This document shows positions 6,163 through 10,186 of a stretch of 64,000 nucleotides of DNA, piece by piece. The notes below the pieces were generated by a model. That model saw nothing but the letters and a program-made list of their open reading frames with translations. It was not told the origin of the DNA and ran no database searches. The position numbers and the translations under genes were made by a program. Each line of letters starts with the position of its first letter. The stretch's first letter is position 1. The stretch is from the NCBI GenBank assembly GCA_963788205.1, contig CAWBGG010000002.1:193988-257987 (forward strand), given 5' to 3'. Origin of the DNA: an uncultured delta proteobacterium. GTDB lineage: Bacteria; Desulfobacterota; Binatia; Binatales; Binataceae.

Positions 6163-7476
6163 CTAGGCCGCACCCGAGCTTGCTACGGCGGCGGCAACCG
6201 CGGCCCTTGGCAAGCTGCGATCGGGTTTGCGGCAGCGCATGATCATCTCGCTGCGCGCAATGTACATCGTGTCCTCGACCTCGAAGCCATGGCGCTCGAG
6301 AATCTCCGCCAGGCTCTTGCGGGTGTAGTGCGTGATGTGTTCATCGCGGTAGCCACCGGGGACAAGGAATCCATATAACGGCTCGATAATACGCCATCCC
6401 AGGGTTGCGTAATCCGGTGTCCCGATAATCAGTGTCCCGCCCGGCTTCAGCACGCGGTCAATTTCGCTGAACAGGACTTCGTCGTAGGCCACATGCTCGA
6501 TAACTTCGGAATGGATCAGGCAATCGAAGGCCCGGTCCTTGAACGGCAACGCCATCGCCGAGCCCCGCGCCAGCGGTATTCCGCGCCGGCGCAGGAACCG
6601 CAGCTTGTCGAAGTTGATGTCCATGCCGATCGTGTTGTTGAGGCTCTGCACGATCACGCTCGAGCCGCATCCCACGTCGAGCGTGCGTCCGGTCGCCCGC
6701 GCCCAGAAGGTCGTAATCCGATGGCGCCTGCGCTGCCAGAAGCGCTGAAGAGGTATGGCGCTATAGAAGGCGCGTTCGTCGTAGTCGGCCGATTCGACCG
6801 AATTACGCAACCCCCAGAGCTTGGCCGCCGAGCGCATCAGGTCCCATCCGAAGCGCAGCACGCGGGCGTGCGAGCGGCCGCTGCCGCGCGGGAAGTAGGT
6901 GAAGGGCACTTCGATCACGTTGAAGCCGCGCGCGTAGGCCTTGACCAGCAACTCCTCCAGCACGTCGAAACTCCGACCTTCGAGCTTGATTCCCTCGATC
7001 GCCTGCCGGCGGTAGAGGCGAAACCCGCTCGAAAGGTCGCGCACCGGCATCGAGAGCAGCCGGCGCAACCCGCCGTTTAACAACTTGCTCAACGCGCTGC
7101 GCGTCCATGGGCCGTAGGAGGCGCCGCCGCGGACATAGCGCGAAGCGATCACGATGTCGGCCTGGTTGCGGGCCCGCCACATCCTGGTCACGAACTCGGG
7201 CTCGTGCGACTGGTCGGCGTCCAGCGTGAGAATGTAATCGCCGCGGGCTTCAGCAAGGCCGGTCTCGGTGGCGCCGGCGTAGCCGGGCCGGCGTTCGGGC
7301 ACCACCCGCGCGCCCAGCGCCGCTGCGGCGTCCTGGGTGCCGTCGCGCGAGCCGCCATCGATGACGATGATCTCGAAATTGATGCCCTCGCGGGCGAGCT
7401 GCGCGGCCAGCCGCGGGATGAGCGCGGTCAGGTTCTCGCGCTCATTGATAACCGGCAGGATTACCGAGAGATCCAT
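6163..7476 (-). CDS. bifunctional GT2 glycosyltransferase (polyprenyl-phosphate sugar synthase, DPM1-like) fused to C-terminal class I SAM-dependent methyltransferase
   Basis: N-terminal domain MDLSVILPVINERENL...IIVIDGGSRDGT...LTLDADQSH is a DPM-synthase-type GT2 signature (DxD-type motif). C-terminal domain LDVGCGSS...DCLIHSEVIEHV...LKPGGTLIIGTPDY is a SAM-MTase (motif I G-x-G-x-G, motif post-II). The ORF extends to 7590 but MDLSV at 7476 is the likely start. Confidence 0.75.
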   Translation of the reverse strand: MDLSVILPVINERENLTALIPRLAAQLAREGINFEIIVIDGGSRDGTQDAAAALGARVVPERRPGYAGATETGLAEARGDYILTLDADQSHEPEFVTRMWRARNQADIVIASRYVRGGASYGPWTRSALSKLLNGGLRRLLSMPVRDLSSGFRLYRRQAIEGIKLEGRSFDVLEELLVKAYARGFNVIEVPFTYFPRGSGRSHARVLRFGWDLMRSAAKLWGLRNSVESADYDERAFYSAIPLQRFWQRRRHRITTFWARATGRTLDVGCGSSVIVQSLNNTIGMDINFDKLRFLRRRGIPLARGSAMALPFKDRAFDCLIHSEVIEHVAYDEVLFSEIDRVLKPGGTLIIGTPDYATLGWRIIEPLYGFLVPGGYRDEHITHYTRKSLAEILERHGFEVEDTMYIARSEMIMRCRKPDRSLPRAAVAAAVASSGAA

Positions 7477-7647
7477 TGAAAATCCGGGTTTCGGTGCGGG
7501 CCCCAAGGCCGTGTGCGCCGCCATTGTATCGTGCGGTCGGCGAGGTTCAAGTGGGCCTATCATTAAGGCGCCGCCGCGGCCGCGCAACAATCATCAGCCG
7601 GTGCCGGAGATCGATACAATCTGTCGCAAAATCGGGCACTTGGACGG

Positions 7648-8598
7648 TTAGCGCGGGCGGCGATACCACTGGATGGTCCGCATCAGGCCGGTCTTGAAGT
7701 CGGTGGCTGCCCGAAAGCCGAACTCGCGCTCCGCCTTCGAAACGTCCAGGCAGCGCCGTGGCTGTCCGTCGGGCTGGGCGGGGTTCCATGCGATCCGTCC
7801 CTTGAAACCCGTCAGCTCAGCGATCAGTTCGGCCAGCTCACGGATGCTGATCTCCATCCCGGCGCCGACATTGATCGGTTCGGCTCCGCTGTAATGCTCG
7901 GCCGCCAGCGCGACGGCGCGGGCGCAATCCTCCACGTACAGGAACTCACGGCTGGCCCGGCCGGTGCCCCAGACTTCGATCTCCGGGGTGCCGGCGTCGA
8001 GCGCATCGACGCATTTCTTGATCAGGGCGGGAATCACGTGCGACCGGTTGGGATCGAACGAGTCGCGCGGCCCGTAGAGGTTGACCGGGAGCAGAAAGAT
8101 TGCGTTGAGGCCGTACTGCTCGCGGTAGGCCTGCGCCTGCACCAGCAGCATCTTCTTGGCCAGGCCGTAGGGCGCGTTGGTCTCCTCGGGGTAGCCGCTC
8201 CAGAGGTCCTCTTCCTTGAAGGGCACGGGCGTAAACTTCGGGTAGGCGCAGACCGTTCCCAGCGCGACGAACTTCTTCACGCCGTGGATCCGGGCTTGTT
8301 CCATCAACTCGACGCCCATCATCAGGTTGTCATAGAAGAATCGGCCGGGGTTCTGGCGATTCGCACCGATACCGCCGACCACCGCGGCGAGATGGATCAC
8401 GACCTCCGGCTTCGCTTCCGCATAGAGCCGCGCGATCGCTTCAGGCCGCCGCAGGTCATGATGGGCCGATCGCGGCACGAACAGGTTGCAGCATCCGGCG
8501 GCGGACAACTGCTCGACCAGATGGCTGCCGAGAAAGCCCGCGCCTCCCGTCACCACGATACGCTGGCCGCACAGCCAAGGGATTTTCAATTGCAGCAT
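7648..8598 (-). CDS. fcl: GDP-L-fucose synthase (GDP-4-keto-6-deoxy-D-mannose 3,5-epimerase/4-reductase)
   Basis: 316 aa. [15 protein letters not shown] Rossmann NAD(P)-binding motif, then ...[14 protein letters not shown]...[31 protein letters not shown]...YGLAKKML... (YxxxK catalytic dyad) and ...[11 protein letters not shown]...; a near-textbook Fcl/WcaG sequence. Confidence 0.85.
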
Positions 8599-8632
8599 CG
8601 GTTTGAGACCCTGGTTTGGAGCCTCCCCGGCA

Positions 8633-10186
8633 CTAGATGAACTTGATCCGGCGGGACGCGAACAGGACCATCCGCAGCAGCAGCCAGCCGTGGGTCCAGC
8701 GCTGGATGTTGGTCTCGCCGTAGGTGCGCTCGCCGTAGCGAATCGGAAGGTCGACCAGCTTCAGATTGAGCCTCGCCGCGCCGAAGATCAGATCGAAATC
8801 ACCGAAGGGATCGAAGTCGCCGAAGTACAACCGGTTTTCTGCGATGAGCCGGTAATGCTCGCGGCTTAGGACCTTCGTTCCACACAGCGTGTCTTTGATC
8901 GGCTGTCCGAGAAGCCATGAGAATGCCCAACTGAAAAACTTGTTGCCGAGCAGATTCAGAAAGCGCATCGCCTGCGCTTCCATCGGGTAGACCAGCCGCG
9001 TCCCGTTTATGAACTCGCCGGCGCCGGATTCGAGCGCTTGGTAAAATCGCGGCAGATCTTCGGGCGCGACGGTCAGGTCGGCGTCCAGGATCATCAGCAC
9101 CTCGCCTGTGGCCTCGGCGAAGCCCAGCCGGACCGCGTCGCCCTTGCCCTTTCCGGCCTGCCGCAGCAGCTTGCATCGGCGCTCGGGATGCTTCGCGATC
9201 GCCTGCTCGATCGTGGCGTAGGTATCGTCGCGCGAGTGGCCCTCGACGAATACGATTTCGGTCCCGCGTCCCATCTCGGGTACGCGCCGCAGGATGTTTT
9301 CTATATTACCGGCCTCGTTGCGCGCGGGAACAATAACACTGACCGAAGGCTGCGGTGATCCGCCGCCGGCGCAAGGCGCGGGCCGCGCGACGATGAAGTT
9401 GGTCAGCGCCGCGTACCGAAACGGGGGAATCCGCACCAAGTACTTGTTGCACAGCGAATCGACCAGGGGCAGCCGGACCGGAAATAGTATGTCCTGCCAC
9501 GCCCGGATCACTTCAAAGCCCGCCAGATAGAGCAGGTTCGCCAGGTCCTCTGTCGTCAGCCAGTTCTGGCCCAGCGACGGGCTGGCCAGCCCAAGGCGCT
9601 GGGCGGCCGCCAGCGGAAGCTCCCACAGGCGGCTGTAAGTGTTGATGACGACCCGGGTGGCCGGACCGCAGGCCGCCGCGACTGTGTCGAGCACCCGTTG
9701 AACGTCCCAGAGATCGTTGACCAGGTCGGAGAGGATTACGTAGTCGAATTTCTCAGGCGTCCAGAACTCGTGCGCGTCGGCGCGTACCAGATTCAGCTCG
9801 GGATGGCGCTTGGACGCCGCCTCGGTCATGGCGGAGGAGAAATCGACTCCCACGCCCAGCGAGGGCTTGAGCGCGGCCAGCAGATCTCCGCGGCCGCATC
9901 CCAGTTCCAGCACCCGCCGCCCCGGCTGCACCAGGGCGCGGAAGATTTCCTCCAGCCGTCGATGGTAATAGCCGGCCGCTCGGCCCGGGACGTGGCGATT
10001 CCAGTGCTCGATCCGAGCCCTGCGGTATCGCGCCGCAGGCCCGTCGGGCGCGAGATCGGAGGGGGACGCAGTCTCTACGCGAGAAGAAACGCTGTCGGGC
10101 GGATGCGAGGGTCGAACCGAAGTAAGTGCAGGCCGGGCGCGAGGGCCTTCGACCGAATAGGCATCTGCCGCGCGCGCGTCGTCCAC
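8633..10186 (-). CDS. bifunctional class I SAM-dependent methyltransferase (N-terminal) fused to GT2 glycosyltransferase (C-terminal; DPG/DPM-synthase-like)
   Basis: N-terminal half: [16 protein letters not shown]...[15 protein letters not shown] (SAM-MTase motifs). C-terminal half: [15 protein letters not shown]...[13 protein letters not shown]...[12 protein letters not shown]...[10 protein letters not shown] (GT2, dolichyl-phosphate glucosyl/mannosyltransferase-like). Domain order is the reverse of the 6163-7476 protein. Confidence 0.75.

Follow-up and report, generated by a model that had tools for sequence, protein, structure and literature searches.

The genes studied here lie in a window of 64 kb (the whole stretch of DNA that was analysed) from the genome of a member of the Binatia (Ca. 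Binataceae). On the minus strand of this window, a gene for a GDP-L-fucose synthase-like protein (fcl) is flanked by two genes encoding reciprocal fusions of a methyltransferase (MT) and a family 2 glycosyltransferase (GT2). The fusion with an N-terminal MT is referred to as MT::GT2, the one with a C-terminal MT as GT2::MT (Table 1). An earlier note on this DNA had reported three consecutive minus-strand open reading frames (ORFs) at 10186..8633, 8598..7648 and 7590..6163, and all three are present. The end of the third was given correctly, but its start was not. Because homologs of 435-440 aa align end to end, over 100% of the product beginning at ATG 7476, translation of GT2::MT almost certainly starts at 7476 instead of 7590, judging from these alignments. 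With this start, a gap of 171 nt separates fcl and GT2::MT. For MT::GT2, the only canonical start codon in frame ahead of the conserved region is GTG 10186. The trio had also been described as a three-gene operon; the same-strand adjacency is real, but the gene string is longer than noted and includes two further genes upstream, the nearer of which ends 42 nt ahead of MT::GT2, and two downstream. Co-transcription of GT2::MT with fcl across the 171-nt gap is plausible from the layout. A scan for promoters and terminators gave counts at or below shuffle expectation and did not indicate the operon limits; the sole promoter-like match of the region, itself not above chance, falls into the gap before GT2::MT.

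In Pfam searches, MT::GT2 matched Methyltransf_23/25 over aa 75-227 with E 4e-15, and Glycos_transf_2 with E 3e-21 from aa 283 onwards. In the ORF 7590..6163 the order is reversed: Glycos_transf_2 (E 4e-30) covers aa 42-199 and Methyltransf_11 (E 3e-17) covers aa 304-389. Among solved structures, the GT2 domain of GT2::MT matched best to the dolichyl-phosphate mannose synthase (DPMS) of P. furiosus (5MLZ, E 2.4e-30, chain residues 23-232), followed by ArnC (3.5e-16) and GtrB (4e-11). DPMS also ranked first for the GT2 domain of MT::GT2 (5MLZ, E 1.7e-15), with ArnC next (9HWJ, E 2e-10). By sequence, GT2::MT is the closer of the two fusions to archaeal DPMS. Polymerising or oligosaccharide-building GT2s, such as chondroitin synthase and PglI-type enzymes, reached only ~1e-4 to 1e-5 in the same searches. 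The best NCBIfam matches of both GT2 domains were AglJ, dolichyl-phosphate (Dol-P)-hexose transferase and ArnC, all of them far below the equivalog cut-offs. The alignments with DPMS and ArnC span the N-terminal nucleotide-binding strand, the DAD motif and the acceptor-loop motif R-x-x-G-(E/R)-(S/T), and run into the interface helix. The DAD motif of both fusions aligns to D89-A-D91 of 5MLZ, and the acceptor-loop motif reads IRARGESK in DPMS, EREFGESK in ArnC, ERTYGETN in MT::GT2 and PRGSGRSH in GT2::MT, whose GT2 domain carries DAD and D..SGF besides PRGSGRSH. Further support is provided by an AlphaFold2 (AF2) model of MT::GT2 (491 aa; pLDDT 79.6, pTM 0.82). In a Foldseek search with this model the top matches were DPMS, ArnC and GtrB, with a target-normalised TM-score of 0.5-0.6 against DPMS and ArnC; no solved protein spanning both domains was found. 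The model of GT2::MT was modest (pLDDT 68, pTM 0.49) and was not used for a fold search. The PDB ranking, NCBIfam and Foldseek (the last for the MT::GT2 model) thus agree with the proposal of the earlier note that the GT2 domains are of the DPM1/DPMS type and not polymerising, and both are predicted to be of the polyprenyl-phosphate glycosyltransferase type.

Solved polyprenyl-phosphate GT2s possess a C-terminal transmembrane (TM) domain of 2-4 helices, which both fusions lack by prediction. No TM helix is predicted in the two proteins, in which no 19-residue window reaches a Kyte-Doolittle value of 1.6, and MT::GT2 terminates 20 residues past the acceptor loop. Helices following the conserved motifs are moderately amphipathic, with hydrophobic moments of 0.35-0.70 across both fusions (~0.4 for the model helices at 380-400 and 470-487 of MT::GT2, and 0.70 for the model helix 203-224 of GT2::MT). 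Since there is no predicted TM helix and only amphipathic helices follow the core, both fusions appear to be peripheral, TM-less versions of the polyprenyl-phosphate GT2 fold. In this, both fusions resemble the TM-less DPM1-type enzymes, whose attachment to the membrane requires a partner or an amphipathic helix. They are like DPMS of P. furiosus (5MLZ), ArnC (9HWJ, 8VXH), GtrB (5EKP) and AglJ in the GT-A fold, the DxD motif and an acceptor-loop motif R-x-x-G-E-S/T followed by an interface helix. Unlike DPMS, ArnC, GtrB and AglJ, both are TM-less and fused to an MT, and no solved enzyme of this group carries an MT.

The conservation of the MT domains was analyzed in family alignments of 33 sequences each for MT::GT2 and GT2::MT. 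In MT::GT2, E68 and G70 of motif I (ELGCGxG) are invariant, as is the acidic residue D89 (GVDFS). In the corresponding motif LDVGCGSS of GT2::MT, residues D267, G269, C270 and G271 are invariant; outside this motif, D286 is found in ≥90% of the sequences. A lack of the S-adenosylmethionine (SAM)-binding motif would have weakened the idea of methylated lipid-linked sugars put forward previously; the motif I glycines are invariant in both families, and by these signatures the MT domains of both fusions look active. An alternative is that the fused MTs act on something other than a sugar (the lipid carrier, a phospholipid or a target protein, for instance), or that they are SAM-sensing, regulatory or oligomerisation domains. 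The closest structures to the MT domain of MT::GT2 are the uncharacterised class I enzymes 2GS9 and 3CCF and generic small-molecule MTs. Across both fusions, the nearest structures (2GS9, 3CCF, 1VLM, BioC, ToxA and PMT) are likewise of the generic or uncharacterised class I kind, and the sugar O-methyltransferase RebM appears only as one among many, as this alternative would have it. It also fits that the MT half of MT::GT2 is less conserved than the GT2 half, with ~17% against ~43% invariant columns. The invariance of the SAM-binding residues and the pTM of 0.82, which suggests a fixed two-domain unit, speak for a catalytic MT instead. In addition, stand-alone MTs accompany MT::GT2 in half of the loci (see below), which would suit multiple methylations of one small substrate. 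We consider a non-sugar or regulatory role of the MTs decidedly unlikely.

The two GT2 domains share 26-27% identity. No match between the MT domains of the two fusions was detected by BLAST or profile-profile comparison. The low GT2 identity together with the lack of an MT-MT match indicates that the fusions arose independently, as the earlier note had supposed. A shared origin of the two was considered as well and rejected, as the profile-profile comparison returned a GT2-GT2 match only.

The fusions are not unusual: searches for homologs with the same domain order revealed that both belong to large, conserved and already annotated, yet uncharacterised, families. For MT::GT2 at least 8000 significant homologs were obtained, thousands of them at 58-91% identity and the best 120 at 64-91%, some of which carry the NCBI name bifunctional class I SAM-dependent methyltransferase/GT2. 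A collection with one genome per species yielded at least 596 matches with 57-70% identity over ~470 aa in more than 10 phyla. Carriers comprise Binatia, Anaerolineae (including the cultured Levilinea saccharolytica), Syntrophaceae/Smithella, Planctomycetota, Acidobacteriota, Nitrospira, Verrucomicrobiota, Gemmatimonadales, Synergistaceae, Ca. Electronema and Zwartia. An identity of 57-70% between more than 10 phyla would correspond to housekeeping-level conservation or to recent horizontal spread. GT2::MT gave 3284 significant word-index matches, the named ones mostly from Binataceae, and its best matches show 67-94% identity at 100% coverage. At E ≤ 1e-30 the family has 406 representative clusters, and full-length matches extend down to ~35% identity, including a protein of Anaerolineales.

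To describe the genomic context of MT::GT2, the ORFs of 80 loci were clustered to find recurrent neighbours. Of 71 loci, 25 have an MT of ~260 aa near MT::GT2, with roughly half of these placing it ≤100 bp downstream on the same strand. Other recurrent neighbours are a second stand-alone MT of ~220 aa (14 loci), polytopic proteins of 590-670 aa with tetratricopeptide repeats (TPRs) (15 loci) and sugar enzymes of the short-chain dehydrogenase/reductase (SDR) type (19 loci). For counts of neighbours, the 37 loci were used in which MT::GT2 has ≥4 kb of sequence on either side. A protein of ≥450 aa with ≥7 TM segments occurs within 5 kb in 30 of them, a stand-alone MT (cluster 1 or 4) in 18, usually ≤100 bp downstream and on the same strand, and an Fcl ortholog with ≥50% identity in six. 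Related arrangements are seen in the Binataceae (L001, L002), where MT::GT2 is followed, in this order, by a 640-aa membrane protein, an MT and an Fcl 77% identical to that of the window, and in Blastocatellia (L003, L004), where a PMT_2 protein precedes MT::GT2 and an MT. The arrangement in the window is, by comparison of these loci, a lineage-specific variant of a widespread module of MT::GT2, MT, Fcl and GT-C/TPR proteins.

The Fcl-like ORF 8598..7648 matches the Pfam family Epimerase with E 6e-59. GDP-L-fucose synthases account for all of its 18 best PDB matches (8DU0, 2e-64; E. coli 1BSV, 2e-60), and the best NCBIfam match is GDP-L-fucose synthase NF047922 with 293.4 bits, below the 500-bit equivalog cut-off; an Anaerolineae ortholog scores 298 bits against the same model. 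The alignment with 8DU0 preserves the Rossmann motif GxxGxxG as well as GTVCAYP, YxxxK and SHVIPAL, and with them the Ser/Thr-Tyr-Lys triad and the Cys/His epimerisation pair, whose roles we take to be those of the E. coli GDP-4-keto-6-deoxymannose epimerase/reductase (GMER). Compared with the known Fcl/GMER/WcaG enzymes (1BSV, 8DU0, 4B8W), the protein is homologous over its full length (E 2e-64) with aligned motifs, but differs in its sub-cut-off score, in the absence of an adjacent GDP-mannose dehydratase gene (gmd) and in its membership of a conserved sub-clade linked to MT::GT2. Its sequence is probably that of a divergent but genuine GDP-4-keto-6-deoxymannose epimerase/reductase. The sub-clade (59-77% identity) travels with MT::GT2: orthologs with 59-63% identity adjoin MT::GT2 in eight loci from Anaerolineae, Phycisphaerae and Nitrospira. 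In a Phycisphaerae metagenome-assembled genome (L022:4912-8486), the genes following MT::GT2 in convergent orientation encode an Fcl ortholog with 62.5% identity to that of the window and then Gmd (TIGR01472, 549 bits against a 415-bit cut-off). These orthologs from three further phyla, one of them encoded next to a true gmd, strengthen the previously noted link of fcl with MT::GT2.

Seven Anaerolineae loci show a different context. In L068:556-10832, a leftward string encodes a MarR regulator, a GalE-like SDR, Fcl, Wzm, Wzt and a KpsS-like protein, and MT::GT2 is divergent from it, together with MTs of 226 and 254 aa; the same arrangement was found in L065, L070, L071, L075, L077 and L058. 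This locus type suggests an ABC-transporter-dependent polymer, and it is the sole context pointing there. MT::GT2 might accordingly be a cytoplasmic capping or chain-terminating enzyme that adds and methylates a terminal 6-deoxyhexose on a polymer linked to undecaprenyl diphosphate (Und-PP), in the manner of WsaE and WbdD, no polyprenyl-monophosphate sugar being formed. A precedent exists in WsaE, in which an N-terminal MT is fused to glycosyltransferase domains and makes a 2-O-methyl cap (PMC2943079). In the S-layer glycan pathway of Geobacillus stearothermophilus to which WsaE belongs, the Wzm/Wzt exporter is predicted to bind this cap (PMC2943079). WsaE and WbdD of E. coli O9a are alike to the fusions in that an MT is fused to or works with glycosyltransferases and the product is a methylated sugar, and WsaE has the same N-terminal position of the MT as MT::GT2. 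Both act on Und-PP-linked polymers and terminate chains for Wzm/Wzt, WsaE with two rhamnosyltransferase domains and WbdD with a kinase and a coiled coil. Going by domain content and gene context, MT::GT2 is set apart from them in having a single DPMS-like GT2 domain and GT-C neighbours, and the window encodes no ABC transporter. It carries neither a coiled-coil ruler nor a second GT domain. Moreover, the nearest relatives of its GT2 domain in sequence and fold are exclusively polyprenyl-phosphate transferases, and the acceptor-loop motif and interface helices are kept. Finally, the large polytopic protein found in 30 of the 37 loci contrasts with an ABC-2 permease (Wzm/Wzt) in only five, all Chloroflexota of the Anaerolineae type. 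Taken together, a capping function of MT::GT2 is improbable.

In Syntrophaceae/Smithella, genes for type IV pilins (~133 aa, N-terminus KGFTLIELM) are located within a few kb of MT::GT2 and its polytopic neighbours with TPRs (L015:5072-5479; L016:11059-11460 and 11588-11989; L040:3521-3925; L049:3377-3844). This proximity hints at pilin glycosylation; the five cases come from related taxa and may represent one evolutionary event.

At least nine paralogous proteins of ~670-790 aa with a polytopic domain and TPRs are encoded in the window, 44-60% identical over the first ~200 residues, and some show weak PMT_2 matches. One of them, the 781-aa protein at the downstream end of the gene string, has an N-terminal domain 48-53% identical to window ORFs that match PMT_2, which upholds the earlier proposal of a link to GT-C enzymes. 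The N-terminal domains of the window proteins, including the 781-aa protein, are furthermore 25-30% identical to the polytopic TPR neighbours of MT::GT2 in Syntrophaceae and Smithella. Like TMTC1-4 and PMT-type O-mannosyltransferases, they combine a PMT_2-like polytopic domain with C-terminal TPRs; they differ from these in the weakness of their PMT_2 matches, most of which do not exceed the gathering score, and in that the putative donor is not Dol-P-Man. Several further polytopic proteins of the window have weak matches to PMT_2, PMT or YfhO.

In all domains of life, periplasmic and luminal glycosylation relies on lipid-linked monosaccharide donors, among them Dol-P-Man, undecaprenyl-phosphate (Und-P)-Glc, Und-P-Ara4N and decaprenyl-phosphate arabinose and ribose (DPA/DPR). 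We propose that the locus would supply such donors, on the cytoplasmic side, for a periplasmic glycosylation system, the steps assigned to MT::GT2 being drawn from its conserved gene neighbourhoods. At the inner face of the membrane, MT::GT2 would transfer the product of Fcl, GDP-L-fucose or a close GDP-6-deoxyhexose, to polyprenyl phosphate. The fused MT, assisted in other lineages by one or two stand-alone MTs, would O-methylate this sugar, either as nucleotide sugar or in its lipid-linked form. A putative flippase would then translocate the lipid-linked sugar, and GT-C/TPR proteins (one in the gene string and at least eight more in the window) would transfer it to periplasmic or secreted proteins or glycans. 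GT2::MT may be a second, independently fused synthase of a lipid-linked, possibly methylated, hexose. In its general form, with two lipid-linked sugar synthases feeding the GT-C/TPR transferases of the window and MT::GT2 handling (methyl)fucose, we give this scheme a slightly better than even chance. In a more specific version, MT::GT2, the accompanying MTs and Fcl/Gmd would produce a polyprenyl-phosphate-linked O-methylated L-fucose or other 6-deoxyhexose, which TMTC-like GT-C/TPR enzymes would use to O-glycosylate secreted proteins. Candidate targets would be the small Ser/Thr-rich secreted proteins encoded upstream in the window and the type IV pilins in Syntrophaceae. We consider this version unlikely.

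Several observations weigh against the scheme. Neither gmd nor a GtrA-like flippase was found in the window (for the latter, no ORF of 80-260 aa with ≥3 hydrophobic segments). Within the sampled MT::GT2 loci only ~16% carry fcl, so that fucose may not be the general substrate of the MT::GT2 family, and in Anaerolineae fcl sits with the Wzm/Wzt ABC transporter, which would suit another pathway. MT::GT2 has VEGHS in place of the consensus DDxS and DADLT in place of DADLQ of DPMS, ArnC and GtrB, both invariant within its family and atypical for GT2. The GT-C assignment is drawn from weak PMT_2 matches and paralogy. In the case of the 781-aa protein it is paralogy on which the GT-C reading rests, because direct PDB searches gave TPR matches only and no direct GT-C match. 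In other Binataceae, GT2::MT is unlinked to the module of MT::GT2 and fcl, from which it is also separated here by the 171-nt gap. A literature search returned no experimental paper and no biochemical data on either fusion family and no report of polyprenyl-phosphate-fucose; on Binatia glycosylation and methylated lipid-linked sugars nothing relevant was found, WsaE/WbdD being the only precedent.

The genomic distribution of GT2::MT raises the possibility that its adjacency to MT::GT2 is incidental and that there is no single pathway, GT2::MT being a housekeeping polyprenyl-phosphate-hexose (mannose-type) synthase of Binataceae that serves many GT-Cs. The complete string recurs only in one relative from the Binataceae (L005), with 70-85% protein identity and the trio at 85%. 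The order there is small secreted proteins, MT::GT2, fcl, GT2::MT, a DUF4019 protein and a polytopic TPR protein, with the 683- and 709-aa membrane proteins on either side as in the window. GT2::MT stands alone in L006, L088 and L089, where it is divergent from a Peptidase_S11/PBP5-type gene, and in L007 it lies beside other membrane proteins, with neither MT::GT2 nor fcl. The reciprocal pair around fcl that had been pointed out is thus real here, but is conserved in a single close relative only; because the trio recurs only in L005 and GT2::MT is solitary elsewhere, the pair is, on gene order, a lineage-specific juxtaposition. Distant homologs of GT2::MT occur in unrelated glycan clusters, and the gap holding the promoter-like match directly precedes this gene, both of which would fit an independent unit. 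Conversely, the window and L005 share the gene order of the entire string although their proteins are only 70-85% identical. In 14 other loci, MT::GT2 is followed by a stand-alone MT of ~220 aa; the sole homolog of this partner in the window is the MT domain of GT2::MT, with 28-32% identity. Both products would, in addition, serve the same class of neighbouring GT-C/TPR enzymes. An incidental juxtaposition is compatible with most findings that support the lipid-linked sugar scheme, and we regard it as a serious possibility, somewhat short of an even chance.

The proposed scheme of two lipid-linked sugar synthases resembles three-component systems such as Gtr, ArnC/ArnT and the pentofuranose systems (PMC11127046) in that a lipid-sugar synthase gene is found beside large polytopic GT-C-like proteins, and a UbiA protein of the type of the decaprenyl-phosphate phosphoribosyltransferase (DPPR synthase) is encoded in the window. 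It differs from them in lacking a GtrA-like flippase, in the TPRs of the GT-C candidates, in MTs that are built into donor formation and in a donor that may be the 6-deoxyhexose made by Fcl.

MT::GT2 is widespread and unusually conserved in poorly studied phyla of soil, sediment and anaerobic digesters (Chloroflexota, Binatia, Acidobacteriota, Planctomycetota, Syntrophia). Solving its role would give a function to thousands of "bifunctional methyltransferase/glycosyltransferase" annotations and might reveal the substrates of bacterial TMTC-like GT-C/TPR enzymes. To our knowledge, no known lipid-linked monosaccharide donor is a 6-deoxyhexose or methylated, and we know of no characterised polyprenyl-phosphate sugar synthase with a built-in methyltransferase. 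If true, a methyl-deoxyhexose donor pathway, with a donor that is not known to have been described before, would concern hundreds of species from over 10 phyla of bacteria. Should the fusions prove to be ordinary polyprenyl-phosphate monosaccharide (PPM)-type synthases with an accessory MT, this would be a useful annotation and no surprise.

Table 1. Features of the gene string and of the wider window (positions refer to the 64-kb window).
Feature	Position	Strand	Basis
MT::GT2 fusion protein, 517 aa	8633..10186	-	Pfam and NCBIfam domains, homologs, AF2 model
MT domain (class I SAM) of MT::GT2, aa 75-227	9506..9964	-	Methyltransf_23 E 4e-15
GT2 domain (DPMS/ArnC/GtrB-like) of MT::GT2, aa 283-505, then C-terminal amphipathic helix	8672..9340	-	PDB and Foldseek matches
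Fcl-like GDP-4-keto-6-deoxy-D-mannose 3,5-epimerase/4-reductase (GDP-L-fucose synthase), 316 aa	7648..8598	-	PDB, NCBIfam
GT2::MT fusion protein, 437 aa	6163..7476	-	Pfam, full-length homologs
DPMS-like GT2 domain of GT2::MT and interface helix	6832..7476	-	5MLZ E 2.4e-30
Class I SAM MT domain of GT2::MT	6274..6747	-	Methyltransf_11 E 3e-17
DUF4019 protein, one N-terminal hydrophobic segment	5463..6173	-	PF13211 E 4e-21; syntenic in L005
Protein with polytopic domain (~9 TM) and C-terminal TPRs, 781 aa	3217..5562	-	TPR matches, TM prediction, paralogy
Small secreted Ser/Thr/Gln/Gly-rich protein	10229..10672	-	Signal-like hydrophobic N-terminus, low-complexity S/T/Q region
Small secreted Cys-containing protein, head of the same-strand gene string	10730..11074	-	Signal-like N-terminus
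Polytopic membrane protein, 683 aa, divergent, ~9 predicted TM	11147..13198	+	TM prediction; 76% identical and syntenic in L005
Intact GT-C/TPR paralogs (7)	3217-5562(-), 25510-27528(-), 27879-30242(+), 33798-35816(-), 51256-53355(-), 58651-60765(-), 60660-62741(-)		
Split GT-C/TPR paralogs (2), N-terminal PMT_2-like ORF and overlapping C-terminal TPR ORF in other frame	15820-17238(-)/17196-17954(-); 31774-32868(+)/32375-33763(+)		
UbiA-family decaprenyl-phosphate phosphoribosyltransferase	50198-51109	-	NF008977, 275 bits vs 234-bit cut-off
Sulfotransferase (PF00685)	19887-20999	-	
Acyl_transf_3 membrane acyltransferase	44206-45423	-	
Polytopic proteins of 680-710 aa (3)	1072-3201(+), 11147-13198(+), 42080-44209(+)		No Pfam, NCBIfam or PDB match

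Both small secreted proteins encoded upstream of MT::GT2 (10229-10672 and 10730-11074) are kept in L005. Both may be targets of glycosylation, and the one next to MT::GT2 is, speculatively, the candidate substrate proper in view of its long low-complexity region. Wzm/Wzt, the ~260-aa MT and pilins were searched for in the window and not found.

With at least nine GT-C/TPR paralogs and a decaprenyl-phosphate phosphoribosyltransferase, the gene content marks the window as a predicted island dedicated to lipid-donor-dependent glycosylation. The pentofuranose three-component systems begin with decaprenyl-phosphate phosphoribosyltransferase (PMC11127046), and the predicted UbiA-family protein implies a donor pathway of the polyprenyl-phosphate-ribose/arabinose type among the GT-C genes. 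The sulfotransferase and the acyltransferase encoded among these genes may be further glycan-decorating enzymes.

The expansion of the GT-C/TPR paralogs, which have a TMTC-like architecture, is unusually dense within 64 kb. Frameshifted pseudogenes, programmed frameshifting or errors of assembly could account for the two split copies. A direct PDB search with the 683-aa polytopic protein returned nothing. The polytopic proteins 1072-3201 and 11147-13198 are syntenic with L005, where their counterparts show 70% and 76% identity.

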